A stretch of DNA of 64,000 bases. Source: a virus. Lineage: Duplodnaviria; Heunggongvirae; Uroviricota; Caudoviricetes. The position numbers and the translations under genes are program-made. The stretch lies in the IMG/VR virus record IMGVR_UViG_2718218135_000001, positions 49,251 to 113,250 of that record; one strand, 5' to 3'. Each line of letters begins with the position of its first letter. Position 1 is the first letter of the stretch. Positions 1 through 64,000 of this stretch are shown here, piece after piece. The notes under the pieces were generated by a model that was not told the DNA's origin, made no database searches, and saw nothing but the letters and a program-made list of their open reading frames with translations.

Positions 1-7
1 TATTTCT

Positions 8-904
8 ATGAATCTGTGGCAAATGCTTATGGCCCGTCGTGGCCTGATGGATGTAGCCGAAGCGCATGAGCGCGGCGGCGCTGGTGGCGGTGCTCCTGCT
101 GGAGACAATGAGCAGAGCATTCAAGACCCAGGCAAACAGGGCGAGCAAAAAGAGCAACCGAAGGGTGACGACGACGAGTATGCCGGTATGACTCAGGAAG
201 AGTTGCTGGCAGAACTGCGTAAGTCTAAGAAAGCCGGTGCTGATCTGTTGAAAGAGAATATGAAGCGCAAGGAGAAAGAGCGCACATTGGCCGATCAGCT
301 GGCTCAGTACGGTGATATTGACCCGACGCGTGCTCGTCAGCTTCTCGAAGCTGAACAAGCCGCAGAAACCGCACGTCGGGAGGCGGAGCAGGCTGAACTG
401 GAACGTCGTGGTGAGTTCGATGCTGTGAAAAAGCAGATGATCGAAGCACACCAGACTGAACTGGCACAGCGCGACGAACGCTACGCCGCTCTGGAGAGCG
501 AGAACGCCGCACTGAAGGCTCAACTGGTCGAAATGACTGTTGGTGTTTCCTTCAGCAGTTCTGCTTTCCTGCGTGACAAAGTTCTGATGACTCCGGCTAA
601 GGCACGCGTTATCTACGGCTCTCATTTCGAAGTGGGTGAAGACGGTAGTGTTGTGGGCTTTGATAAGCCAGCCGGTCAGAAAGAACGTGCAGTTCTGGTT
701 GACGGTGAAGGCAAGCCGTTACCGTTCGAATCCGCGATTGAGCGCATTCTGCGTGCAGATCCGGAAGCTGACGCACTGTTGCGTAGCGAAGCCAAGCAGG
801 GTGCTGGTTCCAATAGCAAACCGCCCCACAAAGTAAGCCAGCCGAAGAGCAAGTCGACTATGGATAAGTTGACCTCCGGTCTGGGAAAAATCGGACTCAA
901 GTAA
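8..904 (+). CDS. putative capsid scaffolding protein (possibly 5'-truncated by window edge)
   Basis: Directly upstream of capsid gene; Glu/Ala/Gln-rich with heptad-like coiled-coil segment (ELERRGEFDAVKKQMIEAHQTELAQRDERYAALESENAALKAQL); frame is open to position 2 so the true start may lie left of the window. Confidence 0.45.
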   Translation: MNLWQMLMARRGLMDVAEAHERGGAGGGAPAGDNEQSIQDPGKQGEQKEQPKGDDDEYAGMTQEELLAELRKSKKAGADLLKENMKRKEKERTLADQLAQYGDIDPTRARQLLEAEQAAETARREAEQAELERRGEFDAVKKQMIEAHQTELAQRDERYAALESENAALKAQLVEMTVGVSFSSSAFLRDKVLMTPAKARVIYGSHFEVGEDGSVVGFDKPAGQKERAVLVDGEGKPLPFESAIERILRADPEADALLRSEAKQGAGSNSKPPHKVSQPKSKSTMDKLTSGLGKIGLK

Positions 905-930
905 CATCTTAAATCATAGGGAAATGAAAG

Positions 931-1806
931 ATGCCATTACTGCGTGATGAAGCTGAAAAGCTGTCTAATAACGAACTTGAGCAGGGTGTGATCGAGACCA
1001 TCATCGATCGCGATGATCTGTTCGCTATTCTGCCTTTCATGAAGATTAATTCTAAGGCATACCTTTACAACCGCGAAGCTACCCTGAGCGAAGCTACCTT
1101 CATTGATGTGAACGACACCATCACTGAAGGCGCAGCAACCTTCAGCGAACACGTTGCGAAGCTACGTATCCTGGCAGGCGACGTAGACGTCGACAAATTC
1201 CTGGCGACCACTATGTCCGACACCAACAACCAGCTGGCAATCCAGGTTCGTCAGAAGGTGAAAGGTCTGGCTCGCGCATTCCGCCGCAACCTGATTCTGG
1301 GCGACTCCAGCACCAACACCAAAGCGTTCGACGGTATTCCGAAACTGATGCACGACGATCAGAAGATCGACATCGAAGGCGCTTCCATGACCTTCTCCAT
1401 GTTCGACGAACTGGTCGACGCGGTGAAAGATCTGGGTGCGGACTGCATCATGATGCGCTCCGAGCATCTGCGTGCTTATCGCGCTCTGCTGCGTACCGTT
1501 AATATCGGCCCGTCCGAAATTATGATGGAAAACTTCGGTCGACCGATGTTGTGCCACAACGGTGTACCTTTCATCGTGAACGACTTCATCCCGACTGACG
1601 CGGGCAAAGCAAGCATCTATTGTCTGCACCTGTCCGAAGAGAACGGTGTGACCGGTCTGTATGGCGGTGAAAACGCTGGTATCGTTGTTGAGAACATCGG
1701 TACTGTTCAGAACAAAGACGCAACCCGTACCCGCGTTAAGTGGTACTGCTCTCTGGCGAACAAGCACGACAAAGCTATCGCCGCGCTGACCAATGTAAAA
1801 ATTTGA
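931..1806 (+). CDS. major capsid protein (HK97-fold type)
   Basis: 291-aa ORF with RBS GGGAAATGAAAG before ATG; position after scaffold and before decoration/tail genes; followed by strong intrinsic terminator. Confidence 0.65.
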   Translation: MPLLRDEAEKLSNNELEQGVIETIIDRDDLFAILPFMKINSKAYLYNREATLSEATFIDVNDTITEGAATFSEHVAKLRILAGDVDVDKFLATTMSDTNNQLAIQVRQKVKGLARAFRRNLILGDSSTNTKAFDGIPKLMHDDQKIDIEGASMTFSMFDELVDAVKDLGADCIMMRSEHLRAYRALLRTVNIGPSEIMMENFGRPMLCHNGVPFIVNDFIPTDAGKASIYCLHLSEENGVTGLYGGENAGIVVENIGTVQNKDATRTRVKWYCSLANKHDKAIAALTNVKI

Positions 1807-1816
1807 TCAGAATACT

Positions 1817-6189: not shown

Positions 6190-6459
6190 GTGTCGCCATT
6201 AGAGCTGCTGGGCGTCCCTCTAACGATGTTCTGGATGCTCAGTCGCAACATCGACCGTCTACGTGCGGAAGAGGATGTCCGCAACCTGCAAGTCGCTCGC
6301 GCTGCCCAGGCAGATGGCGAGGGCGTGAAGGCGTTCATGGAGGGTTTGCAACTCAGGATTGGAAGACCAGTCGTAACCGATAAAGTCTACGATCCGCGCA
6401 AGGATAAGGCAGACCCTGACGCCAAAGAGCAACTGATGCAAATTTTTGGCAGAGGATGA
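6190..6459 (+). CDS. tail assembly chaperone T-like segment (possibly expressed as G-T fusion by -1 frameshift)
   Basis: Frame is -1 relative to 5792..6109 and open from 6097; ends just before tape measure start. Confidence 0.3.
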   Translation: MSPLELLGVPLTMFWMLSRNIDRLRAEEDVRNLQVARAAQADGEGVKAFMEGLQLRIGRPVVTDKVYDPRKDKADPDAKEQLMQIFGRG

Positions 6460-6466
6460 CAAGGGA

Positions 6467-9400
6467 ATGTCACAAAACGTAGAGTTTGTCCTGTCGCTGG
6501 AAGACAAGCAGTTTACAGCGTCAATCGACCGGGCGGGTAAGCTACTTACCAGATTCGGGGAGCAGGCCACAAAACCAGCTCAGAAAATTAACAATCTGGA
6601 ACGCTCGTTGGGTTCGGTCTCCCGCATCATCGGCGTTCTGGAGTCCAAGCTCGATGCCACGGCAGACAAACTACAGGATGTAGCTGCCGGCTTCGAACTT
6701 GTGTCTGATGTTTCGCGCAAGACGCGAGGCAACATTACCAGCCTCAATTCAGGTCTCAAAACCCTGATTGAGCGCGTCGACACAACCACCTCTTCCGTTA
6801 ATAAGCTCACCACATCGTTGCGCAAGGTTCAGTCTGAACTCAATGAGTTTTCCGATTGGGCAACGTTCGCTGGTAAGAGCGCCAGCCGCTTCGGTACGGA
6901 GGTAAAAGAAGCCTCTACATCTGTGAGTGGTATGAATACGCGCCTTAACACCACGACGAAGCGTCTCAGTAATTGGGGTGTCACAACGAACCAGGCTGCC
7001 GAGGGGCTGAAGAAAGTCCGCGATCAGATGGATGCGGTGATTGGCCGCCAGCAGCTGATCAGCAAGCCGGTGCGTGTGCGCACCAGCGGCTACGGTGAGG
7101 GCGGTGGTAATGGCGGTGGCGGTCGACACAGCGGTTCCTATGGCCACGGCGGGCGCGGTGCTGAAAATGGCGTGTTCTCTGGTCTGCGCGGCAATATTTT
7201 CCTGCTGGGCGAGATTGGTGATGCGGCAAGAACGGTAACTGACATCCTGTTCGGCTGGCAGAAGCCAATCGTCGAAGCTGCCTCCAAAATGGAGCGTATG
7301 TGCGTCATGTTGCGCGGGCTGAACAAGGACAAGGCCAACCCTGGCAAAGCAGCCGCAGAGGATATGCAGTACATCGTGGATATGGCGCAAAACGCCCCGT
7401 TTGCGATGCAGGCGCTGACCGATTCCTTCGTTAAATTCCGCTCGGCAGGTCTCGATCCTACTGACGGATCGCTGAAAGCATTGGTGGACTCTGTTGCACG
7501 CTTCGGCGGCGATAGTGAACTGCTAAAACGCGCAGCAGTGGCCGTCCAGCAGATGTCCGGTAAGGGCGTCGTTTCGATGGAAGAACTGCGTCAGCAATTA
7601 GGTGAAGCCGTTCCTAACGCGATGAAAGCGATGGCAGACGCTGCCGGCATTACTATGGGGGAACTGACCAAAGCAGTCTCCAGCGGTACTGTGGAAGCGA
7701 AACAGGCGTTATCGCTGATGTTCGTTGGTCTGCGTGCAGAGAACGAAAACGCCGCCAAAGACATGATGCAAACCTACACCGGTGCGCTGGCGCAACTACA
7801 AACCTCCTTTACGTTGTTCGCCGATCGTGTCGGTCAGACGGGCTATCTGGATTCTCTCTCTAAGGGAATGAAAGAACTAGCCTCCATCATGAATAGCGCA
7901 GAAGGGATTTCGTTTGCTAATTCTTTAGGTTCGGGGTTAACGACGGCAATCGATGGGTTGCGTCAGCTTGCTCAATGGTTAGCAAAGAACCAAGAGCTGG
8001 TAATTAATCTTGGTAAGGTCGTGGCCGCGATGGTTGCGTTCAAACTGATGCGAGCAGGGATCATGGGGGTAGTTGGCGCTGGGAGCCAGATGGTTAGCAC
8101 CTTTGCCACGATGGCGACCGCCATACAGACTCCATTTAACCTCGGCGCTACAGCAGTAACTCGATTCAATCGTGCGGCACGTATGGGGCTGGCTCCGATC
8201 CCCTCTCTTATTTTCGCCATCCGTGGGGCGATTACGGGGCTTAAAGGCGCTTTTGCTGGATTAACGGCGTTCATTGCAGCAAATCCAATTGGCGCTGCGT
8301 TTACCGTGGCAACCGTGGCCGTGGCCGGGTTGATCACGTATATGACCATGCTTCGCAGCGAAACGTCAAAAGTCGTTGACGAGATTAGGAAAATACCAGA
8401 GGCGATGACGGCGGCCAAACGTGCACAAATGGCGGAGTATAAAGCGCGTCTTGAGCAACAAATCACGCAAAAGGAACAAGAGTTAAAATCTGGCGAAAAG
8501 GTGGTTTATGGGCCGGGTATGGCCGGAACTGCAGTAAAGATTAATCAGGATGAACGTAAGCGTATAGAAAATGAGCTAAATGACCTTCGTGAGAAACGCG
8601 ATAAAACTACTGGGGCAATTGAACGCGGAGACACTGCTGTAGCCAAACGTCTTGCAAAAGATGCGGCAGAATCACAGATAGAGAAAATACGGGAAGAGAA
8701 TAGAGACTTTGCGGCAACATTCGCTAAAGCTCGTCAAGAGGCTCTGGAGAAGATCCAAAAAATCAATGATGACGATTCACTTTCTGATGACGAAAAGAAC
8801 AAACTATTGGCACCGTTACGTGAAACGGTAAACAAAAGCTATCTGGAGCCTGCGCAAAAACTGGTTGATTCACTTTCTTCTCGTAAGAATGCGACCGAGA
8901 AGCAAATCGCGACTCTTAATGATCAGCTTGAAAAAGCCAAAAAAGATGGCAATACCGAGCAGATCCAGAAACTGCAAGGCAGTATTCGTGGTTATCAGGA
9001 GCATTTGGAAGCCGTTGCTCAGGAGCTGACTCAGGCAGAGTTCGAGAGAGATAATGCGGCCAAAACTGGTAAGGGCGTAATGTCAAACCAGGGGACTGTT
9101 CTTGGGTTAGGTACAACTGATAAAGCTGCTCAGAAGGCGCTGGCGCAATATATGCGAAACCAGATGGATTCTGCGACTTATCAGCGTACTTTGCCTGACG
9201 GCACTCCGATGATGGACTTCGAAGGTAAGCCGATTATTGGGCCTAAACAACTCAAGACGCAGCTTAATTTGCAGAAAGCATCCAGTGCCAGCTCTCTGGA
9301 GAAAATGAGCGATGCGGAACGCGCCGCAGCCATTGCAGCGCTGACCAAAGCGCGCGAACAGGATGCCGCAGCAGCGGAAAAAGCCGGGCGACGTACAGCC

Positions 9401-11038
9401 AATGCTTCTCAGCGTGCGGCCAAGAAAGAACAGGCAGCGCAACAGAAACTGGCGGCCGGATATCAGAAGGCTCTGGATAAAGCCGATCAGCTTATGGGGC
9501 AAATGGGTGAAAGCTCTAAGGCTACGGTATCGTTTGATCAGTCTCTTCGCGATACAACGAAATCGCTGACTGATTTGGCTAATGCGGTTCCTAACGAGTT
9601 CATCACTCAAGAGATGATCGACAAGGCGAAAAAACGTCTTGAAGACCTTAAAAATGCGACACCTGAATATCGCGAGATGTTTAATCGCCGCAATGTTGAG
9701 CAGATGATCTCCACTTGGGCACCGGAGGCGGATTCCATTATTAGTGCTGGCTATACGCCGTCTCGCGAAGAGAAAGTTGCTGATTTCGAAGACACCTACA
9801 ACCGCAATCTCAAAGCGTTGATAGAACTTCGTGATAAGGCGTCTGATCCTAAAGTTGTGGCGCTTTATACAAAGAAAATCAATCAACTGATTGCTGCTGG
9901 CAATACCGCGCTTATTAAAGAGACGGGGACTGCGACGCAGAAGTTGGCACTGGAATACGAAAACCTGGCAGAGCAGATCGAAAGCACCTGGACTGATTTG
10001 TTTAGTGGCTTAACTGATGTTCTGACTGATTTCGTTATTAACGGGAAGATGAGCTTCTCCAGCCTGTCCCAGTCCATTTTGAAAGATATCACCAATATGG
10101 TCGTGAAGTCGCAGATCACGCTGCCTCTAATGAACATGTTGGGGATGGGAACCACCGCAGTTGGTAGTTCACAGAGTGGTAATTTGCTCACCGGGGTTGC
10201 TTCCGCAGTTGCCAATCAAGGTGTGCGCATAAGCAACACTGTTAATGGCGACAAGTCGGTAGGAGAAGCCACGAAGGAGACGTCCAGTTCGGTAACTGGA
10301 TTGGGGCAAACGACACAGCAGACCACCAGCGCAATTGGCACAGCAACAAATGCGATTGGTAGCTGGGTATCAGGGCTATTTGATAGCACCGAAGCCAAAG
10401 ATGCTGAGACAAAAGCAGTGAAGGATTCCATCTTCTCGATGCAGAACCTCAGCTCTGTTACCGGTGCTCTGTCTGCCGCGTTCGCAATGCTTGGAGCTAA
10501 TGCTTCCGGCTCTGGTAATAAGTGGTTGAATTTCGGCGCGACAGTTGCATCTGGGTTGGTTTCAGTATGGGCAGGTGGTGGTTTCGACAGCGCGACATCA
10601 AACTCTGCTAAAACCGCAACCAGCAGTGTGGCTGACGGAACTAAAGGCATTCCTGCAATCCCGAAGTTTGCAAATGGAGGAATATTCGGAAAAGACGGCG
10701 TGATCCCGCTCCGGGCATACCAGAAAGGCGGTATTGCTAACTCGCCTCAATTAGCGTTGTTTGGGGAAGGTTCTATGAATGAGGCGTATGTTCCATTGCC
10801 TGATGGTCGAACAATCCCTGTAACGCTCAGTACCGATGGTATGAGTGGAGGAGGAAATGTTCTTTCTCCGGTATCAATTGAGATCAACGTCCATAGTGAC
10901 GGTAGCACAACTGAATCCGGCGATACAGAAAGCATATGGAACAATGCCGCTCAACGGATGAAAGCAATCGCGCTTGAGACTATCGCTCAAGAGAAACGCC
11001 CTGGCGGATCACTCAACCCAAACACTCAACGTAACTAA
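6467..11038 (+). CDS. tail tape measure protein
   Basis: About 1520-aa ORF with long helical/coiled-coil content, Gly-rich tract and hydrophobic segments; ATG at 6467 with AAGGGA RBS (track TTG at 6446). Confidence 0.7.
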   Translation: MSQNVEFVLSLEDKQFTASIDRAGKLLTRFGEQATKPAQKINNLERSLGSVSRIIGVLESKLDATADKLQDVAAGFELVSDVSRKTRGNITSLNSGLKTLIERVDTTTSSVNKLTTSLRKVQSELNEFSDWATFAGKSASRFGTEVKEASTSVSGMNTRLNTTTKRLSNWGVTTNQAAEGLKKVRDQMDAVIGRQQLISKPVRVRTSGYGEGGGNGGGGRHSGSYGHGGRGAENGVFSGLRGNIFLLGEIGDAARTVTDILFGWQKPIVEAASKMERMCVMLRGLNKDKANPGKAAAEDMQYIVDMAQNAPFAMQALTDSFVKFRSAGLDPTDGSLKALVDSVARFGGDSELLKRAAVAVQQMSGKGVVSMEELRQQLGEAVPNAMKAMADAAGITMGELTKAVSSGTVEAKQALSLMFVGLRAENENAAKDMMQTYTGALAQLQTSFTLFADRVGQTGYLDSLSKGMKELASIMNSAEGISFANSLGSGLTTAIDGLRQLAQWLAKNQELVINLGKVVAAMVAFKLMRAGIMGVVGAGSQMVSTFATMATAIQTPFNLGATAVTRFNRAARMGLAPIPSLIFAIRGAITGLKGAFAGLTAFIAANPIGAAFTVATVAVAGLITYMTMLRSETSKVVDEIRKIPEAMTAAKRAQMAEYKARLEQQITQKEQELKSGEKVVYGPGMAGTAVKINQDERKRIENELNDLREKRDKTTGAIERGDTAVAKRLAKDAAESQIEKIREENRDFAATFAKARQEALEKIQKINDDDSLSDDEKNKLLAPLRETVNKSYLEPAQKLVDSLSSRKNATEKQIATLNDQLEKAKKDGNTEQIQKLQGSIRGYQEHLEAVAQELTQAEFERDNAAKTGKGVMSNQGTVLGLGTTDKAAQKALAQYMRNQMDSATYQRTLPDGTPMMDFEGKPIIGPKQLKTQLNLQKASSASSLEKMSDAERAAAIAALTKAREQDAAAAEKAGRRTANASQRAAKKEQAAQQKLAAGYQKALDKADQLMGQMGESSKATVSFDQSLRDTTKSLTDLANAVPNEFITQEMIDKAKKRLEDLKNATPEYREMFNRRNVEQMISTWAPEADSIISAGYTPSREEKVADFEDTYNRNLKALIELRDKASDPKVVALYTKKINQLIAAGNTALIKETGTATQKLALEYENLAEQIESTWTDLFSGLTDVLTDFVINGKMSFSSLSQSILKDITNMVVKSQITLPLMNMLGMGTTAVGSSQSGNLLTGVASAVANQGVRISNTVNGDKSVGEATKETSSSVTGLGQTTQQTTSAIGTATNAIGSWVSGLFDSTEAKDAETKAVKDSIFSMQNLSSVTGALSAAFAMLGANASGSGNKWLNFGATVASGLVSVWAGGGFDSATSNSAKTATSSVADGTKGIPAIPKFANGGIFGKDGVIPLRAYQKGGIANSPQLALFGEGSMNEAYVPLPDGRTIPVTLSTDGMSGGGNVLSPVSIEINVHSDGSTTESGDTESIWNNAAQRMKAIALETIAQEKRPGGSLNPNTQRN

Positions 11039-18163: not shown

Positions 18164-18231
18164 TTGATAGGAATAATGAGCAGCAATGTATATAGCGTGT
18201 TTTCTTAGTGCAAAAGGATTTTGTATCATGG

Positions 18232-18255
18232 ATAATAAGTAAGTATATACCTATT
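18232..18255. promoter_or_regulatory. conserved intergenic motif A copy (ATAATAAGTAAGTATATACCTATT)
   Basis: About 45 bp upstream of side tail fibre start. Confidence 0.5.
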
Positions 18256-18256
18256 T

Positions 18257-47426: not shown

Positions 47427-47442
47427 TAGCTTTACCCTTAAA

Positions 47443-47465
47443 AATAAGTAACTACTTACTATACA
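47443..47465. promoter_or_regulatory. conserved intergenic motif A copy (AAAATAAGTAACTACTTACTATA)
   Basis: AAGTA / TACTT arms; about 55 bp upstream of AAA+ gene. Confidence 0.5.
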
Positions 47466-47521
47466 GCCTAATATATTTCTATAAGATATACCCCACAAAC
47501 GACAAACAGTAAGGAAAAAAC

Positions 47522-48757
47522 ATGACCGCTACTGCACTACAGCAAGAAGAACATTTGCCGGAAGCCATCGTCTGCAAGTGGTGTGGCAAATCCTTTCATT
47601 ACCTGAAATCCCATATCTCTATGGGCCGTTGCGAGAATATTCCTGAGTCTGCGAAGGGTCTGGACGTGGACGAAGTGGTGAAGATGTACACCTCTGCGTT
47701 TCCAGATGAACCAACGATCTCTCGCACGGCACTGGCCAAACTCAATGAGAAGCGTGCCGAAAAGCATTCAGGCGAAGGAAAAGTAGCGGAGATTAGCGCA
47801 CATCCGGGCTACGCAGGAACGGTCGAATACAAGACCGAACTGGTGGCCGCGCACGAGCTGCTTGGCGTAACGATCAAAGAGCTGGGTACACCACGCGGAA
47901 AACCACTACAGGTGACAGTCAACGTCAACACGCCCTATCCGGAGTTCGTACCTGAAGCGAAGAAAAACTATGTGTATGGCGACTTCGACCTGATCAAGGA
48001 CATCTTTATGATGCTGGAAATCGGAATCCCGGGTTATCTCTGGGGCCATGCAGGAACCGGTAAATCTTCTCTTCCTACGCAGCTATGTGCCCTGCTAAAT
48101 CGACCACTGATCCGCGCCCAGCATACGGCGTCTATGGAGGAAGCGCACGTTACAGGCCAGATCCTCGCTCGCGATGGTTCCACCTATTTCGAACCGGGTT
48201 TACTAGCGCTGGCGATGAAAAATGGTTGGGTTTACCTCGCTGATGAATATGACTTCGCGTTCCCGCAGATTCTGGGTGTGTATCAGCCAGTTCTTGAAGG
48301 AGAGCCGCTGATCATCAAAGAGGCAACTGCGGACTGGCGCCGCATCACCCCGCATAAACGCTTTGCCTTCATTGGCACTGGCAACACTAACGGCTCTGGC
48401 GACGAAACAGGTCTCTATCAAGGCACAAACATCCAGAACGCAGCGAACTTCTCGCGTTTTGGCATTGTTTCAAACGTGAAGTACATGAGTACGAAGGCAG
48501 AAGTCAACATGCTGGCTGAAGCAGGCGTCATCCGCGAATACGCCGAGAAGATGGTGAAGTTCGCGAATCTTATCCGTGAAGGTTATGAAAAGCATCAGAT
48601 TAGCCAGCCAATCGGGCCTCGTGAGCTGCTGCTGTCCGCCAAAATCGGAATGATGCGCGGTGATTTCTCTGCCGGCATCGAAAAGTCGTTTATCAATAAA
48701 CTTCCATCCACGTCTGCACAGGCAGCGCGTGAAGTGGTTCAGAAGATCTTTGGTTAA
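47522..48757 (+). CDS. AAA+ ATPase (MoxR/CobS-like) with N-terminal zinc-ribbon
   Basis: Walker A GHAGTGKS, Walker B VYLADEYD; CKWCGKSFHYLKSHISMGRC zinc motif. Confidence 0.6.
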   Translation: MTATALQQEEHLPEAIVCKWCGKSFHYLKSHISMGRCENIPESAKGLDVDEVVKMYTSAFPDEPTISRTALAKLNEKRAEKHSGEGKVAEISAHPGYAGTVEYKTELVAAHELLGVTIKELGTPRGKPLQVTVNVNTPYPEFVPEAKKNYVYGDFDLIKDIFMMLEIGIPGYLWGHAGTGKSSLPTQLCALLNRPLIRAQHTASMEEAHVTGQILARDGSTYFEPGLLALAMKNGWVYLADEYDFAFPQILGVYQPVLEGEPLIIKEATADWRRITPHKRFAFIGTGNTNGSGDETGLYQGTNIQNAANFSRFGIVSNVKYMSTKAEVNMLAEAGVIREYAEKMVKFANLIREGYEKHQISQPIGPRELLLSAKIGMMRGDFSAGIEKSFINKLPSTSAQAAREVVQKIFG

Positions 48758-51900: not shown

Positions 51901-52444
51901 TAAGCGCTCTGCTGAAGTAAATGTACTGATGACGCGCATGGCGGCCGAAATGGGGCTGGGAGACGATCTAATCCGTCCAAGCATTGGTATTAAGCCAAAA
52001 ATCATGGTTATTCTGGACAACGCGAACGGCAATGATGGGCGTACCGGCTACTTCATGGAGAACGGTTACGACGACTTTAAGGCGAAGTTGCTTACTGCAG
52101 GCGATCTGCGTATGGGCGATCTCTACGTCACCGGCGTGTGCAAAAAGGTGAAGGACAAAGAGAAGGACTACACCAAAGACGAGATCGGTCAGTTCACCGA
52201 CTTTATGCGTGAAGAGATCAATCTGGTGCGTCCGACCTATGTACTGACGTGTGGCAGCCGGGCGACGTCGCTCTTCAACAACAAGAGCAAACCATCCGAC
52301 CTGGTTGGACGCAAAGAGTATCTGCCGGAGCTGGATGCGACCGTTTTCTACGGATTTAACCCGAATATCCTTTACTTCCGACCGGAAGAAGGAGAGCGAC
52401 TGGAGGCCATTCTGACTGATATTGCGGAGACGATAAATAAGTAA
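48938..52444 (+). CDS. DNA polymerase III alpha-type (DnaE-like) replicative polymerase
   Basis: GYFLMVRDLMNHSRETGIPVGPGRGSSAGSLVAWCIGITNVDPIRHGLLFERFINPERLDLPDADLDF matches DnaE palm signature; 1168 aa. Confidence 0.8.
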   Translation: MKALMVRTDFSLGESALKAENAVKIARDAGYTAVISADSMNIASVIPLQRAAGDDMAVICGVKLNVVDDPTYEHRARLAKESGGCMESLVRDRSYCFTALIKNEQGYRDVCELMTLANKREQFYFVPRLALDQLAAAYAKGNIILLTSDIGSVFQRRDFAKIIGTLVTAGGRDNFYSVVYPHPTPFYDQINVRAMKVASALKIEPVAFYPAYYEAIDDADIKDIAHMVTNNIKIDQPHRLRIPHQRDNAVNGRRHLLEALKAFSVRMGVPVTAAMVSTTQDTIIEACTWRWHELPPALPKMADDEPATLMKLAVAGLRKRLTTKEFGYTPPASEHRVYVERLKYEMDTLTRLGFCGYFLMVRDLMNHSRETGIPVGPGRGSSAGSLVAWCIGITNVDPIRHGLLFERFINPERLDLPDADLDFSQARRHEVIEYLNEHYGEDYVAGIPNFTYLGAASALRDTARIYGVDAADMSVSKEFKNLEDDSLSLEELREQLASLDKYATKNPEAFKAACKLQSLMRGFGRHAAGMIVAGVPLVERTPVELRGNARCIAFDKRYCEAMGLIKLDVLGLATLDLLDSAKRYIKESTGEDINLDAIPLDDRKVLDGFAAGYTQGVFQLESGPMRKLLKDLGGGIEPMSFKTVVATTALFRPGPIQSGMLDDYVSVAKGFMAPHSIHPRLEEVTRETNGVLLYQEQIMQSSRVLAGFSMAEADALRSAIGKKNMDKMKAIGSDFVERAQAGWVTLSLKNGGTVEVHKHAKLDCSDGKRRSYSEAISDGIDYVEIVSEQEGLSKEKAQEIWDAFEKFGGYAFNKSHSVAYSLISYQSMWLKTHYPAEFFAAALTILGEDKHQGLVKDALTYGIRVLPPDVNVSSNRIEIRTLEDGSQVLYAPFSAVKGCSENGCQAIMRAREKVGGKFESLEQFEEAVEKRACNSRVRESLQKVGAFASIESGSLPATDPERLRDQAELMGNLVIDAVKASRPFEMNPKRSAEVNVLMTRMAAEMGLGDDLIRPSIGIKPKIMVILDNANGNDGRTGYFMENGYDDFKAKLLTAGDLRMGDLYVTGVCKKVKDKEKDYTKDEIGQFTDFMREEINLVRPTYVLTCGSRATSLFNNKSKPSDLVGRKEYLPELDATVFYGFNPNILYFRPEEGERLEAILTDIAETINK

Positions 52445-55983: not shown

Positions 55984-58323
55984 ATGGCAAAAGGCAAATC
56001 CGCACTGGCACTGGCGCTGAAAAAGAAAATCGGCAGCAATGACGAGATTCAGAAGGTCTCCCACTGGATTGACTCCGGTTTCCCTCCACTGAACAAAGCC
56101 ATTTCCGGACGTTACGACGGTGGTTTTCCGTGTGGGCGTATCGTTGAAGTCTTCGGGCCACCAAGCGCGGGGAAATGTGTTACCGCAGACACCATGCTGC
56201 TGACGGAGCGTGGAATTGTAACAGTGAAAGAACTGTTTGAGATTGAGGGGCACAAAGCAACATGCACTACTCGCGATGTAGAGCATAACGTTGGACTCAT
56301 CAATGAAAATGGCGTGATAGAGAAGACCTCACACCTGACATGGAACAACCGTCGCAAATTCAAGCGCATTAAGCTGGCATCAGGGGGTTACATCGAGGCT
56401 ACGTTCCGTCACCCAATTCGTGTGGTTGACGACTTAGGCAATATCGTCTGGCGGTATGCTGAAAAAATCAGTGTAGGCGACACGATTCCTTCAATGGTTG
56501 GCACACATCAATTCGGCGATCAGCACTTGGATGCCAATATCGCAAAACTGATGGGCTATTTAATTGCTGACGGATACGTGGCCTCTGAAAATTCTGTGCA
56601 TTTTTCTAACACAGATCCATTCATCAAGGATGAGTACTACCGCCTCATTTCGCTGGTATCAGACAAGATGCCAGTTACGAGAAAACATAACGGCTCGGAA
56701 GACCATGTGCTGTTTAGCAAAGAGGTGCGTTCGCTGCTTTTTAAAGAATATGGTCTGGAGTATGAGAAAGCTGCTGGCAAGCAGGTTCCGTTGAGTGTGC
56801 GTCGCGCCAATAGCGAGGCTCAAATTGCATTCCTTCGCGGCTACTTTGAGCTGGAATGCCACGTCAATGATGGTCGCTGCATTGAGGTTGTGAGCGCGAG
56901 TGGGCTGCTGCTACAGCAAATTCGCCTCATGCTCCTGAATCTGGGGATTACGTCAACTATCTCTGAAAAACACGTCGCAGGTTATAAAAACATATATTAC
57001 CGGCTGTCATTCAGTGGCTCTAACTACGACCTTTTCCTGTCAACGATTGGGTTCGAGTCTCCGGCTCGTTTAGCAGTGGCAACCAAACGGGACATTAGTT
57101 TTGACCGCACTTATTTAGGCTACGTTCCGCACATCAGCGGCTTAGTGAAATCACTCTACGAGTCACTCACCAAGACCTCTCGTAAAGACTACGTTCTGGT
57201 AGATCACGTTATTGGCCGCGGCGATCGTGTCGGAATAGACAAACTGCGAGAAATCTATGTCTCCTTCATTGGCAGAAAGAATCGTTTTAACGAGCATCTG
57301 TTTGCACAACTGGCAGCGGTAATTGACTCTAACTTGTTCTACGACGAAGTCGTGGCTATTGAGGAAGGTGAAGCACCAACGTTCGACGTAGCGATGCCGG
57401 AAACACACTCTTTCTGGTCTAACGGGATTATCAGCCACAACACATTCCTCGCGACGGCTGCGATGGTGTCAGCACAAAAACAGGATGGTCTGGCCGTATT
57501 CCTTGACCACGAAAACAGTTTCGACGTTGGTCTGGCGGTAGCGAACGGACTGAACGCCGACGAAGACGACGGTCAGTGGGTCTACAAACAGCCGGATACC
57601 TTCGAAGACTCCGTAGAGCTGATCGGCACAATCCTCAAGCTGGTGCGCGACGAAGAGCTTATTCCGGAAACAGCCCCTATCTGCATCGTAGCCGACTCTC
57701 TGGCGTCGATGGTTCCGAACTCGAAGGCTGAGAAGTTCGACAAGATGGCAGAAGGCACTGCGAAGGACAAAGATCAGCTGAACATGAACGACAACACGGC
57801 GCTGGCGCGCGCGACAAGTGCGAACTTCCCTACTCTGGCGCTTTGGGCGCGTAAGTACAACGCGTGCATCATCTTCTTGAACCAGGTGCGTACCAAAATT
57901 GGTGTGATGTTTGGCGATCCGACTACGTCTCCGGGTGGCGACTCTCCGAAGTTCTACGCGTCGGTGCGCATCCGTCTGGGTGCATCCGTCATGAAGGATG
58001 GCAAAGAGAAGATCGGACAGGACGTTGGCGCCGAGTGCATTAAAAACAAAGTCGCGCCTCCGTTTGGCAAATGCTCATGGAAATTCTACTTCGACCCGAC
58101 TCGCGGGCTGGACGTCGTCGAGTCTCTGGTTGAATACATGCTGGAGGAAGGATACCTGCCCAAGAGCGCCAGCGGGCGTGTGGAAATTGGCGAGAAGAAA
58201 TACACCAAATCACAGATCGTCGAGATGTACCGGGAGAAGCCATTAGCTGAAATCATTGCTGCGTTACAGGCAATAGATGACAGGCGCGAGAAGACATCAC
58301 CGACAGATGAATTAGAAGATTAA
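55984..58323 (+). CDS. RecA-family recombinase (UvsX/Sak4-like) precursor containing an intein
   Basis: Exteins give GPPSAGK|T Walker A, FLDHENSFD, IVADSLASM, PGGDSPKFYASVRIRL RecA-like motifs; AAAAGGAG RBS. Confidence 0.75.
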   Translation: MAKGKSALALALKKKIGSNDEIQKVSHWIDSGFPPLNKAISGRYDGGFPCGRIVEVFGPPSAGKCVTADTMLLTERGIVTVKELFEIEGHKATCTTRDVEHNVGLINENGVIEKTSHLTWNNRRKFKRIKLASGGYIEATFRHPIRVVDDLGNIVWRYAEKISVGDTIPSMVGTHQFGDQHLDANIAKLMGYLIADGYVASENSVHFSNTDPFIKDEYYRLISLVSDKMPVTRKHNGSEDHVLFSKEVRSLLFKEYGLEYEKAAGKQVPLSVRRANSEAQIAFLRGYFELECHVNDGRCIEVVSASGLLLQQIRLMLLNLGITSTISEKHVAGYKNIYYRLSFSGSNYDLFLSTIGFESPARLAVATKRDISFDRTYLGYVPHISGLVKSLYESLTKTSRKDYVLVDHVIGRGDRVGIDKLREIYVSFIGRKNRFNEHLFAQLAAVIDSNLFYDEVVAIEEGEAPTFDVAMPETHSFWSNGIISHNTFLATAAMVSAQKQDGLAVFLDHENSFDVGLAVANGLNADEDDGQWVYKQPDTFEDSVELIGTILKLVRDEELIPETAPICIVADSLASMVPNSKAEKFDKMAEGTAKDKDQLNMNDNTALARATSANFPTLALWARKYNACIIFLNQVRTKIGVMFGDPTTSPGGDSPKFYASVRIRLGASVMKDGKEKIGQDVGAECIKNKVAPPFGKCSWKFYFDPTRGLDVVESLVEYMLEEGYLPKSASGRVEIGEKKYTKSQIVEMYREKPLAEIIAALQAIDDRREKTSPTDELED
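56176..57441 (+). other. intein with LAGLIDADG homing-endonuclease domain, inserted in RecA P-loop
   Basis: Begins with Cys (CVTADTMLL), ends SHN followed by +1 Thr; LAGLIDADG-like blocks LMGYLIADGYV and FLRGYFELECH; length 1266 nt = 422 codons in frame. Confidence 0.7.
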
Positions 58324-58880: not shown

Positions 58881-59041
58881 CTTTATGGTGTCATAAACTT
58901 AAATCTAGCGCCGGGTAGAACAAGTTAATCGAACGATGTAGCGGCCATTTAGGCGTTACAGAAAGAACAGAATTTTAAATTTATAGTGAAGCCGTTGCAG
59001 CAACTTTGTGGGGTGCAACCAACACTGAACAGGAAAAGAAA

Positions 59042-61474
59042 ATGGATCATAGTGTACATAACAAGCTCATCTCATTTATATGGAACATTGCCGACGACTG
59101 TTTACGTGATGTGTACGTTCGCGGTAAGTACCGCGATGTGATTTTACCTATGGTGGTATTACGACGTTTAGATACGTTACTTGAACCCACCAAAGAAGCC
59201 GTGCTTGAAGAGGTCAAGTTCCAAAAAGAAGAGATGCAAGCCACGGAGCTTGATGATGAACCATTGAAGGCGGCTAGTGGTTATGTTTTTTACAATACAT
59301 CTAAATGGACCCTGAAATCCCTGTTCAACACCGCAACGAATAACCAACAGATATTACTCGCCAACTTTGAAGAGTACCTGCTTGGCTTTAGCGATAATGT
59401 TAAAGAAATCATTGAATGCTTTAACCTCAAGTCGCAAATTCGTCACATGGCCTCAAAGCAAGTCCTTCTTGATGTCGTCGAAAAGTTTGTTTCCCCTTAC
59501 ATCAACTTAACTCATGAAACGATCGAAGACCCAGATGGCAACAAGATGCCAGCCCTTACTAACCTGGGTATGGGGTACGTGTTCGAAGAGTTGATCCGTA
59601 AGTTCAACGAGGAGAATAACGAAGAAGCCGGTGAGCACTTTACACCTAGGGAAGTGATTGAGCTGATGACACACTTGGTTTTTGACCCAGTGAAAGAGCA
59701 GCTACCATTGACCATGACCGTTTACGACCCTGCGTGTGGTAGCGGTGGTATGCTCACTGAATCTCAAAACTTCATTGAAGAGAAATACCCGAACGACAGC
59801 CGAGATATTTACCTTTACGGCAAAGAGATCAATGACGAGACCTACGCGATTTGTAAATCGGACATGATGATCAAAGGTAACAACCCTGAGAACATCAAGG
59901 TAGGCTCAACCTTGTCTACCGACGAGTTTGCGGCTTCTCGCTTTGACTTTATGTTGTCTAACCCGCCATACGGTAAGAGTTGGGCGTCTGAACAGAAGTA
60001 CATTAAAGACGGCAGTGATGTGATTGACCCGCGTTTTAAGGTTAGCCTGAAAGACTATTGGGGAAATCTCGAAGTGGTGGATGCCACGCCACGTTCGAGT
60101 GATGGCCAGCTGCTTTTCTTAATGGAGATGGTCAACAAGATGAAAGATCCGAGCGTAAGTCCATTAGGCAGCCGGATTGCCTCTGTTCATAACGGCTCAT
60201 CGCTCTTTACCGGCGATGCGGGCGGTGGCGAAAGTAATATTCGTCGCTTCATCATTGAAAACGACATGCTAGATGCCATCGTTCAGTTACCTAATAACCT
60301 GTTCTATAACACTGGCATTACCACTTACATTTGGGTGTTGAACAACAATAAACCTGAGGCGCGTAAAGGTAAGGTGCAATTAATTGATGCCAGCTTGCTC
60401 TACCGTAAGTTGCGCAAGAACTTAGGTAACAAAAACTGCGAATTTGCGCCTGAGCACATCACGGAAATTACCGATACTTACCTCGCGTGTAAGGATGTTG
60501 AAAGAGCACTGGATGCAAACAATGATCCTGTTGGCATCGCCAGTAAGGTATTCAGCAATGACGATTTTGGCTACTACAAAGTCACTATAGAGCGCCCAGA
60601 TCGCCGCAAAGCCAAGTTTACTCAAGACGCAATAGCCCCACTGCGTTTTGATAAGCAACTTAGTGAAGTGATGGAGTACGTGTACGCAGAGCACGGCGAA
60701 CGTGTTTACGAAAAAACTGGCTACGGGTCAGATCAGAAAAAGAGCTTCTTAAAATCCATCGAGAAAGACATTCTTTCTTGGTGTGAAGATAACGACATCA
60801 GTCTCAATGCTAAGGCTAAGGCCAAACTGCTTGATGTGAAACACTGGCTGGCGCTAAAAGCATTGCTTGAAACTGCACAAACGCTGATGGCTGACATCGG
60901 TAGCATTGAATTTGATGACTTCAATAGCTTTAAAACCCAAGTTGATAAATCGCTAAAAGCCCATGCTATTAAGCTTTCAGCACCTGAGAAAAATGCCATT
61001 CTTCACGCGGTGAGCTGGTATGACGAAACCGCCAAGAAAGTGGTTAAAAAGGTAGTTAAATTAACGGGTGATAAATTAAACGACCTGCTGGAGCGCTATG
61101 AGTGTGAAGTCGCTGACTTGCCAGATTTTGGTTATTACCCCGTTCCTTCAGCAGAAGGCGGTAAAAAAGGCGAGTATATCACTTACGAGACCAATTCAGA
61201 CCTGCGAGATACAGAATCTGTTCCATTAAAGCAAAGCATTTACCAGTACTTCCTAGATGAAGTGAAGCCTCATGTCGATGAAGCATGGATAAACCTAGAT
61301 ACGGTAAAAATTGGCTATGAAATCAGCTTCAATAAGTATTTCTACCGTTATAAACCGCTGCGTAGTTTAGAAGAGGTCGCAACCGACATCATCAACCTAG
61401 AACAAAAAGCCGAAGGTCTCATTGCGCAGATATTGGGTGTTAAAGTGGCGGAAGTAAAAAAGGTTCAGGGGTAA
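59042..61474 (+). CDS. type I restriction-modification methyltransferase subunit (HsdM-like, long form)
   Basis: N6-adenine MTase motif IV NPPYG and motif I-like DPACGSGGML; followed by HsdS; ATG at 59042 preferred. Confidence 0.7.
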   Translation: MDHSVHNKLISFIWNIADDCLRDVYVRGKYRDVILPMVVLRRLDTLLEPTKEAVLEEVKFQKEEMQATELDDEPLKAASGYVFYNTSKWTLKSLFNTATNNQQILLANFEEYLLGFSDNVKEIIECFNLKSQIRHMASKQVLLDVVEKFVSPYINLTHETIEDPDGNKMPALTNLGMGYVFEELIRKFNEENNEEAGEHFTPREVIELMTHLVFDPVKEQLPLTMTVYDPACGSGGMLTESQNFIEEKYPNDSRDIYLYGKEINDETYAICKSDMMIKGNNPENIKVGSTLSTDEFAASRFDFMLSNPPYGKSWASEQKYIKDGSDVIDPRFKVSLKDYWGNLEVVDATPRSSDGQLLFLMEMVNKMKDPSVSPLGSRIASVHNGSSLFTGDAGGGESNIRRFIIENDMLDAIVQLPNNLFYNTGITTYIWVLNNNKPEARKGKVQLIDASLLYRKLRKNLGNKNCEFAPEHITEITDTYLACKDVERALDANNDPVGIASKVFSNDDFGYYKVTIERPDRRKAKFTQDAIAPLRFDKQLSEVMEYVYAEHGERVYEKTGYGSDQKKSFLKSIEKDILSWCEDNDISLNAKAKAKLLDVKHWLALKALLETAQTLMADIGSIEFDDFNSFKTQVDKSLKAHAIKLSAPEKNAILHAVSWYDETAKKVVKKVVKLTGDKLNDLLERYECEVADLPDFGYYPVPSAEGGKKGEYITYETNSDLRDTESVPLKQSIYQYFLDEVKPHVDEAWINLDTVKIGYEISFNKYFYRYKPLRSLEEVATDIINLEQKAEGLIAQILGVKVAEVKKVQG

Positions 61475-61480
61475 GTCGTT

Positions 61481-62818
61481 ATGATGAAGATTTCTGAAAT
61501 GCCGAAATATGACGATTATGTAGATTCTGGGGTTGAATGGTTGGGACGAGTTCCTTCTCATTGGCAGATTATAAGATTGAAAAATACGATCAATGGATGC
61601 GTCAATGGCTTATGGGGGGCTGATCCAAATGGTAAAGATGAATTGGTTGTAGTAAGAGTTTCGGATTTTGATGAGCAAAAATTGAATGTTTCTGATGAAA
61701 AACTTACTTATCGTTCCATACCTGAAAACGAACGGAAAAGTCGCCTATTGAAATTTGGTGATTTATTGATAGAAAAATCAGGTGGAGGCGATAAAACTTT
61801 AGTTGGTAGAGTTGTTTTGTTTGATAAAAGCTATACGGCAGTCACGTCAAACTTCGTCGCAAAAATGACTCCAAAAAATTGGGTAAACCACAGTTTTTTA
61901 AAGTATGTATTTTTTAGTTTATATAGTCGAGGTGTCAATTACGTATCTATTAAGCAAACAACAGGTATCCAAAACCTTGATGCGAATTCGTATTTAAATG
62001 AAGTTTTCTGTTTTCCTGATGAATTTGTTCAGGCAGAGGTCGCCAACTTTCTTGACAAGAAAACCGCTCTAATCGACGAAGCGATTTCGATCAAAGAGCA
62101 GCAAATTAGCCTGCTGAAAGAGCGTAAGCAGATCATCATCCAACAGGCGGTGACCCAAGGGCTTGACCCGAATGTGCCAATGAAAGACTCCGGTATGGAT
62201 TGGATTGGGAAGATTCCGCAACACTGGAAATTAAAGCCTAATAAGTGCCTTTTCAAGTTAAAAAAATCATTGGTAGGAAAAAGATCTGGAGACTATGAGC
62301 TTCTATCTCTAACCCTAAAAGGGATAATTAAACGAGATATGGATAACCCAGAGGGGAAATTTCCAGCTGAGTTTAATACGTACCAAGAAGTTAGTGTCGG
62401 TGACTTTGTATTCTGTTTATTCGATGTAGAGGAAACCCCTAGAACTGTTGGTCTTTCTAAATTTAACGGAATGATTACTGGGGCCTATACGGTTTTTGAA
62501 CTTGATGAGAGTGTTAGTAAGGAATTCCTTTATTATTTTTATTTAAATTTAGACTCAAGAAAAATGATGAGACCATTGTATAAGGGTCTAAGAAATACCA
62601 TCTCAAAAGAGACTTTTTTGAGCTTTAAGTCATTTATACCACCTTTGAAAGAGCAAGAAGAGATCGTTGATTTTATTGAATATGAGGTTAATAAGATAGA
62701 TCTCACTATAGATGGGATATCCGAACAAATTGATAAAATAAAGGAATATAAGTCTTGTCTAATAAATGGTTCGGTCACAGGTAAAATTAAAGTTACGTCA
62801 GAAATGGCTGAGCGATAG
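61481..62818 (+). CDS. type I restriction-modification specificity subunit (HsdS)
   Basis: Two target-recognition domains separated by conserved central helical spacer; AT-rich codon usage. Confidence 0.7.
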   Translation: MMKISEMPKYDDYVDSGVEWLGRVPSHWQIIRLKNTINGCVNGLWGADPNGKDELVVVRVSDFDEQKLNVSDEKLTYRSIPENERKSRLLKFGDLLIEKSGGGDKTLVGRVVLFDKSYTAVTSNFVAKMTPKNWVNHSFLKYVFFSLYSRGVNYVSIKQTTGIQNLDANSYLNEVFCFPDEFVQAEVANFLDKKTALIDEAISIKEQQISLLKERKQIIIQQAVTQGLDPNVPMKDSGMDWIGKIPQHWKLKPNKCLFKLKKSLVGKRSGDYELLSLTLKGIIKRDMDNPEGKFPAEFNTYQEVSVGDFVFCLFDVEETPRTVGLSKFNGMITGAYTVFELDESVSKEFLYYFYLNLDSRKMMRPLYKGLRNTISKETFLSFKSFIPPLKEQEEIVDFIEYEVNKIDLTIDGISEQIDKIKEYKSCLINGSVTGKIKVTSEMAER

Positions 62819-62827
62819 GACGCGAGT

Positions 62828-63991
62828 ATGTTCACGGTAAATCATCAGACCAATAGGATTAGTCCGGTTAAGACGAAGAAGTTCAGTGAGTTGGGCTTTA
62901 CTGAGCGCAAGCATCTTCAGGAGTGGTTGGCACACGAACCTTCCGCACTCGGTGAAGAGTTGTTGATTATTCAAAAAGAGTTCGATGGCTTTGATGACAC
63001 CCGTGAACGCTTAGATTTACTGGCACTGGATAAAGATGGCAACTTGGTCATTATTGAAAACAAGCTGGACGACAGTGGCCGCGATGTGGTGTGGCAGGCG
63101 CTTAAATATGCCTCTTACTGTGCCAGTTTAACCAAAGCGCAAATAGTTGAAATTTATCAGCAGTACTTAGACCGCTATGAGCCTGTCACAGGAGAGGTAG
63201 ACCTGTTAAATGCCCCTGCAAGTGCCTCAGCTAGAATATGTGAGTTTTTGGATGCGCCCGATCTGGATGAGTTAAAGCTCAACCTGGGTAACAGCCAGCG
63301 CATCATGTTAGTTGCGGCAAACTTTCGCAAAGAAGTGACCAGCACCGCGCTGTGGTTATTGGGTCAAGGAATTAGCATTGCCTGCTTCAAAATCACGCCT
63401 TATTCACTGGGTGAACAGCTACTGATTAATATTGACCAGATCATCCCAACGCCGGAAGCGAAAGAGTTGATGATCGGCATTAATGCCAAGGAAGCGGAAG
63501 AAAAAACCACCGAAGTGGTACTAAAAAACCGCCATACGGTGCGGCGCGAATACTGGGAGCGTGCCTTAGAGGCGTTTCAGAAAAGCGCTTGCCAACTCTA
63601 TAACAACATTAGCCCAAGCAATGATCATTGGTTATCAGCAGGCTCAGGGTTAAGTGGGTGTCCGTATAACCTGATATTTCTGCAAAAAGAGCTTCGAGTA
63701 GAGCTTTGTATCAGCCGTGGGGTTACCGAAGAGAATAAATACCTTTTTGACTTGTTGAGTCAGTCCAAACAGGACATTGAACATACTTTTGGTGCAGAAC
63801 TTGAGTGGATGAGGCTGGATGAGAAGAAATCTTGCCGTATTCAGTTTTCGACCAAAGCTGATGGGTTTAACAAAGATACGTGGCCCCAAGCGGTTGCGTG
63901 GCACTTAGAGCAGATGACAAAGTTAGAAAAAGCCTTAAAAGGACCGCTGCAAAAAGCGGCTGAGGCAATGAAACAGAAGAATTTTGATTAA
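62828..63991 (+). CDS. PD-(D/E)xK-like nuclease-domain protein associated with RM locus (DUF4268/NucS-like, tentative)
   Basis: N-terminal RERLDLLALDKDGNLVIIENKLDD fits D...ExK nuclease signature; immediately downstream of hsdS. Confidence 0.35.
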   Translation: MFTVNHQTNRISPVKTKKFSELGFTERKHLQEWLAHEPSALGEELLIIQKEFDGFDDTRERLDLLALDKDGNLVIIENKLDDSGRDVVWQALKYASYCASLTKAQIVEIYQQYLDRYEPVTGEVDLLNAPASASARICEFLDAPDLDELKLNLGNSQRIMLVAANFRKEVTSTALWLLGQGISIACFKITPYSLGEQLLINIDQIIPTPEAKELMIGINAKEAEEKTTEVVLKNRHTVRREYWERALEAFQKSACQLYNNISPSNDHWLSAGSGLSGCPYNLIFLQKELRVELCISRGVTEENKYLFDLLSQSKQDIEHTFGAELEWMRLDEKKSCRIQFSTKADGFNKDTWPQAVAWHLEQMTKLEKALKGPLQKAAEAMKQKNFD

Positions 63992-64000
63992 GGGAACTTA

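Follow-up and report, generated by a model that had tools for sequence, protein, structure and literature searches.

The 64,000-nucleotide stretch analysed here, referred to throughout as the window, comprises positions 49,251 to 113,250 of IMG/VR record IMGVR_UViG_2718218135_000001, from a virus of the Caudoviricetes. It encodes a lambda-like virion and lysis module, followed by a ParA-type partition pair, a replication set of its own, a tRNA-Asn gene and a tyrosine recombinase (Int). Almost certainly, the window covers about 60% of an Escherichia coli phage-plasmid of the SSU5 supergroup, a temperate siphovirus that as a prophage is kept as a circular, low-copy IncFIB plasmid of about 110 kb. 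Its int gene lies next to a palindrome and a LexA box, which we favour as parts of a self-contained, SOS-linked unit for resolution or circularisation, similar to Cre/loxP but outside the Cre family.

Gene content and family placement

The genes that carry the placement are listed below, with identities to SSU5 given for amino acids (aa).

8-904 (+): head scaffolding protein; PHROGs phrog_206/phrog_212 pair with the capsid protein, 97-99% identity
931-1806 (+): major capsid (head) protein; same PHROGs pair, 97-99% identity
1881-6459 (+): immunoglobulin (Ig)-domain protein, head-tail joining and tail tube genes; PHROGs families common to SSU5-type phages; 92-99% identity, but 56% for the Ig protein
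6446-11038 (+): tail tape measure protein, 1530 aa; phrog_1292 over its full length, 89% identity
11081-18163 (+): lambda-type tail tip proteins M, L, K, I and J; phrog_14, 18, 30, 32 and 31; 86-99% identity (29-37% to N15)
18257-21945 (+): side tail fibre and tail fibre assembly protein, a variable host-range region; phrog_295 and phrog_105
22067-23362 (+): lysis cassette of holin-like, endolysin and spanin-like genes; phrog_5093 and phrog_873; homologous to SSU5_026-028 (annotated holin, endolysin, spanin)
24649-25314 (+): ParA partition ATPase, 221 aa; Pfam AAA_31, MipZ and CbiA; NCBIfam ParA_partition at 118 bits, under the 180-bit cut-off; 98% identity
25314-25673 (+): ParA partner, 119 aa; family searches without match; 96% identity
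27562-28902 (+): DnaB-like helicase; Pfam DnaB_C; 99% identity
28963-30174 (+): DnaG-type primase; weak Pfam matches (DNAG_N 24.0 bits against a cut-off of 26, Toprim_2 22.0 bits against 22.1), annotated as DNA primase in relatives; 93% identity
39093-40415 (+): ATP-dependent DNA ligase; Pfam DNA_ligase_A_M; 98% identity
41985-42059 (+): tRNA-Asn (GTT); ARAGORN, and Rfam tRNA at 76.2 bits; at the equivalent position in SSU5 and Cyrano
45129-48757 (+): CobT-like VWA protein (86% identity) and CobS/MoxR-like AAA ATPase (99%); Pfam CobT, CobT_C and AAA_5; NCBIfam CobS match under its cut-off
48938-52444 (+): DnaE-type DNA polymerase III alpha subunit; Pfam PHP, DNA_pol3_alpha, finger and HHH_6; 93% identity
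53694-54710 (+): gp32-type single-stranded DNA-binding protein; Pfam gp32, E=1e-71; 96% identity
54771-55715 (+): 5'-3' exonuclease/FEN; Pfam 5_3_exonuc_N/C; 98% identity
55984-58323 (+): RecA-family recombinase with an intein; Pfam RecA, Intein_splicing and LAGLIDADG_3

A preliminary description of the window, made from its letters without database searches, had named most of these components, and family searches now confirm them. PHROGs recognises the lambda-like virion and lysis genes (scaffold, capsid, tape measure, tail tip, fibres, endolysin), while of the proposed partition pair ParA is identified by Pfam and NCBIfam and the 119-aa partner matches no family. The replication set is recovered by Pfam, with the primase identified from weak matches together with the annotation of relatives, and Pfam likewise finds the recombinase and both addiction modules (GNAT/TacA-DUF1778 and phd-doc). 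Virion and lysis genes are accompanied by the partition and replication functions of a plasmid, with ParA in the window and RepA beyond its end in the closest record, NZ_CP115313.1.

The window matches complete circular IncFIB plasmids of E. coli, 106-116 kb in size, at 97-99.5% identity (megablast), an example being pCUVET18-789.1 (113,740 bp, IncFIB, non-mobilizable). NZ_CP115313.1, also typed IncFIB, is 98.6-99.5% identical. SSU5 DNA is collinear with 41.7 of the 64 kb (~65%) at 88.8% identity; over the first 25 kb, SSU5 aligns with 77% of the window at 87% identity and Cyrano with 82% at 86%. The 56 window genes were also compared by tblastn with SSU5 (NC_018843), P1 (NC_005856) and N15 (NC_001901), and 39 of them have collinear SSU5 homologues, mostly at 85-99% aa identity. 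Four have P1 homologues, confined to phd, doc and tail-fibre fragments, and five have N15 homologues, all of the tail tip and at 29-37% aa identity. The earlier proposal of a P1- or SSU5-style extrachromosomal prophage therefore stands in its SSU5 half and falls in its P1 half. Gene content and synteny are shared to a high degree with SSU5 and pHCM2, and the recombination genes that persist in the supergroup, Int and RecA, are both present.

The closest known systems are SSU5 itself and the SSU5_pHCM2 and pSLy3 groups (pHCM2, pLF82, which is Cyrano, pECOH89 and AnCo1-3). Their head, tail, lysis, ParA, helicase-primase, ligase and tRNA-Asn genes are collinear with those of the window, as are the CobT/CobS-like pair, DnaE, gp32, FEN and RecA, and the plasmids of the group are IncFIB, non-mobilizable, circular and ~110 kb. 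Relative to SSU5, the window adds int, a helix-turn-helix (HTH) regulator, two toxin-antitoxin modules, a fimbrial operon, a GIY-YIG gene, the RecA intein and a type I restriction-modification system, and its tail-fibre region is different; relative to Cyrano-type E. coli elements, its replication half is only ~80-83% identical, and it has one tRNA against three in Cyrano. P1 resembles the window as a plasmid prophage with partition genes, phd-doc, a phage-borne tRNA-Asn and a DnaB-like helicase. Yet P1 is a myovirus whose virion and replication genes are unrelated to those of the window, with a type Ia ParAB and a different RepA, and among its core genes (myovirus virion, P1 RepA/ParAB, Cre, C1) none was matched by the window, the matches being limited to phd, doc and tail-fibre fragments. 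N15 resembles the window in its lambda-like siphovirus tail tip and in its maintenance as a plasmid with a partition system; however, it is linear and 46 kb, carries a protelomerase and a RepA primase-helicase, and has the tail tip alone in common with the window. Membership in an N15-like group found no support in this comparison, which ran one way from the window genes to N15, with the N15 protelomerase and RepA not queried against the window.

Both ends of the window cut through the element, and repA, hsdR, terminase and portal lie outside. In NZ_CP115313.1 the right end is followed by hsdR and then, ~6.6 kb beyond the window end, by repA; at the left end, relatives carry portal and terminase just upstream of the window start. 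Long uninterrupted open reading frames (ORFs) and a mildly positive GC skew run throughout the window, with no obvious compositional break except a stretch of low G+C (0.40) at 34-36 kb.

The class itself is already known and has been described repeatedly since 2002-2021, tyrosine recombinase and tRNA-Asn included. The SSU5 supercommunity forms the biggest group of related phage-plasmids, IncFIB and siphoviral with lambdoid-like tail genes, and tyrosine recombinases are among the persistent genes of the supergroup (Pfeifer et al. 2021, PMC7969092). AnCo3 was described with an integrase and a tRNA-Asn (PMC5427195). The preliminary description had set the recombinase and the tRNA in contrast to the phage-plasmid combination; both are normal features of the family, seen in pHCM2, Cyrano and the Klebsiella, Enterobacter and Cronobacter plasmids.

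A recombinase beside a palindrome and a LexA box

The int locus, between the tRNA-Asn gene and the CobT-like gene, contains the following features.

42999-43029: palindrome ATGATTCCATAC-N7-GTATGGAATCAT, candidate recombination core site, about 100-130 bp upstream of int
43081-43100: LexA (SOS) box TACTGTTTATAAATACAGTA, ~45 bp upstream of the int start codon
43129-44232 (+): tyrosine recombinase (int), 367 aa, without an arm-binding domain; Pfam Phage_integrase
44227-44625 (-): HTH regulator, 132 aa, homologue of the Cyrano 'putative repressor' CYRAN_45; HTH_3 and HTH_31 matches below cut-off

Int retains the catalytic residues of its family, with R185, K211, R285, H307 and Y316/Y321 invariant or nearly so. 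Pfam gave no match to PF13356 or any other arm-binding domain, although homologues at 23-30% identity carry PF13356 (Arm-DNA-bind_3). In the predicted structure (pLDDT 87) the N-terminus is all helical; the best fold match of the model is lambda Int 75-356, the match to Cre is weak (E ~1e-2), the fold search as a whole yielded generic tyrosine-recombinase matches, and a sequence search against PDB chains returned no match. Among characterised families, Int aligns through its core-binding and catalytic domains with the P4/CP4-57-type integrases (Arm-DNA-bind_3 + Phage_int_M + Phage_integrase), covering positions 137-394 of NCBIfam PRK09692 with the catalytic residues conserved. It differs from them in having short helices in place of the N-terminal PF13356 domain, and in being encoded on a plasmid prophage beside a palindromic site rather than at an att junction.

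The palindrome spans 31 bp in a 12-7-12 arrangement. In the six sequences compared its arms are invariant and its spacer is variable, and twelve-bp arms around a variable 7-bp spacer have the geometry of a tyrosine recombinase core site, as in lox, FRT, dif and attP cores. It is unique in the window, where none would be expected by chance. Searching 185,579 species genomes for the exact palindrome gave seven matches, on contigs of at most 169 kb, each directly upstream of an int homologue; an orphan copy of the kind expected for an attB candidate was found in none of these genomes. The palindrome is kept even in Chimaeribacter, where Int is ~58% identical and no homologue of the HTH regulator was detected nearby.

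Between the palindrome and int, a LexA box of the form TACTGT-N8-ACAGTA lies at about -45 in all six sequences compared, with a variable interior, and it is present in most relatives, including those from Escherichia, Salmonella (pHCM2), Enterobacter, Cronobacter and Klebsiella. The core pattern CTGT-N8-ACAG occurs once in the window, and this core alone would be expected about once by chance. Upstream of the palindrome and the LexA box, sequence and genes differ completely among the six sequences. A promoter and terminator scan around int gave nothing above chance. As judged from these sequences, the box suggests that the recombinase would be under SOS control.

The locus thereby combines a tyrosine recombinase without an arm-binding domain with an inverted-repeat core whose spacer is within 6-8 bp and which is inherited together with the recombinase, as in a unit of the Cre/loxP type. 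P1 offers the nearest parallel, its recombinase likewise standing beside its own site with a LexA site between them (lox 1-17, LexA site 46-65, cre 436-1467), although P1 Cre has no detectable sequence similarity to Int. Most likely, Int would act on the single palindrome in the manner of Cre on loxP, resolving plasmid multimers or circularising infecting DNA. We favour this reading of a self-contained, SOS-linked unit, similar to Cre/loxP and outside the Cre family. In the literature searched, we found no description of the int/palindrome/LexA unit or of the deletion in SSU5 considered below.

Dispersed copies of the palindrome arm

Outside the palindrome, the 12-bp arm recurs singly, in exact form, at 40787(+), 41807(+) and 49191(-), bringing the total to five within 8.4 kb, where 0.34 would be expected. 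These single copies share the 15-mer ATGATTCCATACATC (40787-40801(+), 41807-41821(+) and 49188-49202(-)) and converge on the palindrome, with those to its left on the + strand and those to its right on the - strand. Their positions are conserved in distant relatives, and in three lineages one copy lies exactly 253 nt into dnaE. The complete 113.7-kb plasmid has no 12-mers beyond these five; SSU5 has two, and P1 and N15 have none. A genome-wide operator similar to the C1 sites of P1 was considered and rejected, as the five copies of the complete plasmid are clustered.

Two observations weigh against a Cre/loxP-like mechanism. The fold of Int is nearer to lambda Int than to Cre, and a simple lox-like system would not be expected to have single copies of the palindrome arm kilobases away. 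Such copies would be in line with a set of operators, a role that would suit them no less than that of accessory recombinase sites. It is thus conceivable, if somewhat doubtful, that the palindrome and the single arms are operators of the HTH 'putative repressor' or of a self-regulating Int, the role of the recombinase being a different or a vestigial one. The excess of exact 12-mers, their common 15-mer and the positions held in distant relatives are all in keeping with operators; the pattern is reminiscent of P1, whose C1 operators occur singly and in pairs, and two single sites are retained in SSU5, which lacks int. Yet the palindrome stays with int in Chimaeribacter, where Int has diverged to 58% identity and the regulator is undetected. 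Moreover, it lies upstream of the putative int promoter, recognised by eye (-35 TTGATC and -10 TAATAT in relatives) and not called by the automatic scan, and its arms and spacer have core-site geometry.

Loss of int and the putative repressor in SSU5

The HTH regulator is convergent with int, their ends overlapping, and is followed by a 70-aa ORF and CobT. The same order is found in pHCM2, Cyrano and the Klebsiella, Enterobacter and Cronobacter plasmids, and in Cyrano, pHCM2 and Enterobacter the syntenic counterparts of the regulator carry the annotation 'putative repressor' or 'transcriptional regulator'. The Cyrano lysogen expresses CYRAN_45 (PMC9928086). Divergence of the int locus across relatives tracks that of the backbone; the recombinase is part of the family backbone and not a chromosomal integrase.

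In SSU5, the tRNA-Asn gene is followed ~165 bp on by the CobT-like gene, whereas in the window a segment of 2,967 bp (42102-45068) intervenes, which holds int, the putative repressor and most of the 70-aa ORF. It is bounded by CCGTCCGAAC and CCGTCCGCAC, present as a single copy in SSU5 (42633-42642). Such a 10-bp near-repeat could mark an integrase island inserted at tRNA-Asn, a reading that we rejected given that relatives share the arrangement. Because the arrangement of int and regulator is kept in all other relatives examined, it is SSU5 that carries a deletion. SSU5 has been called virulent (PMC5427195), and the loss of int and repressor fits, and might explain, that report.

A fuller account can be offered tentatively, as one that we hold possible and short of probable. 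Int may descend from an integrase of the P4/lambda type that lost its arm domain and came to use a single 31-bp palindrome situated upstream of the LexA-controlled promoter of int, which would make the unit an independently evolved, SOS-linked counterpart of Cre/loxP for resolving or circularising a 110-kb plasmid prophage. In this account, the 15-mers would be accessory or regulatory, and the loss of int and repressor would have made SSU5 virulent. The recombinase/palindrome/LexA unit and the SSU5 deletion are modest leads and the possible addition to what is known of these elements. If confirmed, the unit would explain how plasmid prophages keep monomeric circles and could give another orthogonal recombinase/site pair for engineering, and the deletion would explain why the type phage is lytic.

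Plasmid state and virion production

A 20.4-kb backbone query (window 38000-58400) was compared by megablast with 5,426 complete E. coli genomes and matched 307 places in 258 of them; all 307 are plasmid-borne, and none is chromosomal. An earlier query (37000-58500) returned many chromosomal matches, all of which are due to a fragment of an IS3-family insertion sequence (IS) at ~37160-37600. The plasmid records of relatives are circular, and both the SSU5 genome record and closed plasmids keep the partition and replication genes in collinear order with the phage genes. SSU5-type phage-plasmids are common in Enterobacteriaceae, and they transfer cargo both as a plasmid and as a virus. The same backbone also lies inside plasmids of 150-205 kb (LC807807.1, NZ_CP058829.1, NZ_AP027746.1 and others), probably cointegrates with other plasmids.

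How the element would behave can be outlined from its relatives and the literature. Plasmid replication would start at the RepA/IncFIB origin just past the window, ParA and the addiction modules would stabilise inheritance, and DNA damage would induce virion production. Cyrano (pLF82) persists as a plasmid of ~5.5 copies, produces siphovirus particles and is inducible by genotoxic stress (Misson et al. 2023, PMC9928086).

Several points weigh against reading the window as an intact phage-plasmid that stays outside the chromosome. It shows 64 kb of the element, with repA, terminase and portal outside, so that completeness, circularity and copy number go unread. A recombinase 85% identical to Int was found on three contigs of 0.2-1 Mb, which may represent cointegrates or integrated copies; the other contigs listed with close Int homologues are plasmid-sized. 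Non-inducibility has been reported for some SSU5-like plasmids (PMC8969562). Along these lines, the element might be a domesticated or defective phage-like plasmid that keeps an SSU5-type backbone and no longer makes infectious virions. The same source reports a Klebsiella pneumoniae SSU5-like plasmid as not behaving like an intact prophage; in addition, IS1203 lies within the tail gene region of NZ_CP115313.1, and the window itself has cargo and IS remnants. We nevertheless consider a defective element unlikely, as no structural, lysis or replication ORF of the window is truncated and all have 85-99% identity to their counterparts in the plaque-forming SSU5, and the related Cyrano makes virions (PMC9928086).

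Far less probable is an integrating lambdoid prophage, whose tyrosine recombinase would insert at a tRNA gene and whose plasmid-type genes would be incidental. The recombinase does lie ~1 kb from the tRNA-Asn gene, and its nearest relatives in sequence and in fold are integrases. However, no host DNA and no host junction occur anywhere in the 64 kb, a check that the preliminary description had set for itself, and none of the backbone matches is chromosomal. The tRNA is complete, phage-borne and present in the integrase-free SSU5, the arm-binding domain is missing from the recombinase, and the orphan palindrome expected of an attB is absent from the species genomes searched. For the related idea that tRNA-Asn is an attP copy of a host tRNA, the query 38000-58400 had no chromosomal megablast match, in a search that matches shorter than ~45 bp would escape; the idea was rejected because the tRNA is complete and SSU5 carries it without int.

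An assembly chimera, in which a phage contig is joined to an unrelated plasmid with par, toxin-antitoxin and replication genes, would account for the mixed gene content and for nothing else, and its probability is negligible, since the same gene order recurs in dozens of closed circular plasmids and since its recurrence in the SSU5 genome record excludes a co-assembly artefact, including the separate co-assembled replicon that the preliminary description had foreseen as a possible refutation.

Partition and addiction modules

From its sequence, the ParA locus is type Ib-like. No centromere-like iterated repeats were found beside parA. Directly after the partner gene, a perfect 14-7-14 inverted repeat, TTATGCATTGGCGC-N7-GCGCCAATGCATAA, lies at 25677-25711 and might serve as a terminator or as the centromere site that is otherwise missing. 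ARAGORN also called a tRNA-Lys of 81 nt at 24637-24717(-), which overlaps the start of parA and, having no Rfam support, is probably spurious. The two addiction modules are encoded as follows.

23531-24052 (-): GNAT toxin; Pfam Acetyltransf_1
24060-24329 (-): TacA/DUF1778 antitoxin; Pfam TacA1
30308-30685 (-): doc; Pfam Fic/DOC
30685-30906 (-): phd; Pfam PhdYeFM

The GNAT/TacA module (Pfam Acetyltransf_1 and TacA1, E=3.5e-26) is an accessory one, on an island (23481-24551) missing from SSU5. The Cyrano lysogen expresses a KacT-type toxin with a putative antitoxin (PMC9928086). Phd and Doc are 94% and 92% identical in aa to their P1 counterparts, and SSU5 is without phd-doc.

Accessory islands and other observations

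Stretches of the window that do not align with SSU5 DNA form discrete islands inserted in the backbone: besides the GNAT/TacA island, these are the GIY-YIG stretch (25672-26604), the phd-doc/fimbrial/IS3 stretch (30150-37623), the recombinase segment (42102-45068), the RecA intein (56176-57450) and the type I restriction-modification stretch (58802 to the window end). The tail-fibre region (17576-21996) is likewise unaligned, and its side tail fibre and assembly genes are 93-95% identical in DNA to lambdoid phage stf/tfa. The remaining accessory genes are these.

25726-26493 (-): GIY-YIG nuclease-like gene (accessory); Pfam LEM-3_GIY-YIG; not in SSU5
31091-35900 (-): Yeh-like chaperone-usher fimbrial operon (cargo); Pfam Usher, PapC_N/C, PapD_N and Fimbrial
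36041-37600: IS3-family remnants bordering the cargo island; Pfam rve/rve_3 and HTH_Tnp_1
59006-63991 (+): type I restriction-modification genes hsdM and hsdS with a DUF4268 gene; Pfam N6_Mtase, HsdM_N, Methylase_S and DUF4268

The cargo island (30150-37623) separates the primase gene from the backbone gene that follows and comprises phd-doc, the fimbrial operon and the IS3 remnants. The operon, which SSU5 lacks, has a G+C of ~0.40 and a YehD match over the NCBIfam cut-off (197 bits), and the IS3 remnants are the sole part of 37000-58500 with matches to E. coli chromosomes. Where close relatives lack the fimbrial operon, the corresponding match covers RecQ helicase or sulfatase genes, and the site is probably an exchange hot spot. 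The fimbrial, addiction and restriction genes of the window illustrate how such elements gather adhesion, stability and defence functions at fixed hot spots.

Within recA, an intein of 412 aa with a LAGLIDADG domain (DNA 56206-57441) starts with Cys and ends with His-Asn followed by Thr (HN|T). Its insertion splits the RecA Walker A motif between K and T (GPPSAGK|T), and the flanking exteins match the 358-aa RecA of SSU5, which is intein-free. Relatives are polymorphic at this gene, annotated in some as 'recombinase RecA' and in others as 'LAGLIDADG family homing endonuclease'.

Another palindrome, a perfect 12-9-12 one (CTGTACGAACAG-N9-CTGTTCGTACAG), is found at 45112-45144, just upstream of the CobT-like gene, and is kept in SSU5; a possible role is that of an operator for the early or replication operon. 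Inside the tail fibre assembly gene, the Rfam family IS009, a small RNA candidate, matches 21707-21905 (+) at 190 bits, which probably reflects a prophage origin of that family. The type I restriction-modification system is not in SSU5, and its hsdR follows beyond the window in NZ_CP115313.1. HsdM is unusually long at 822 aa, and the DUF4268 gene sits between hsdS and hsdR.

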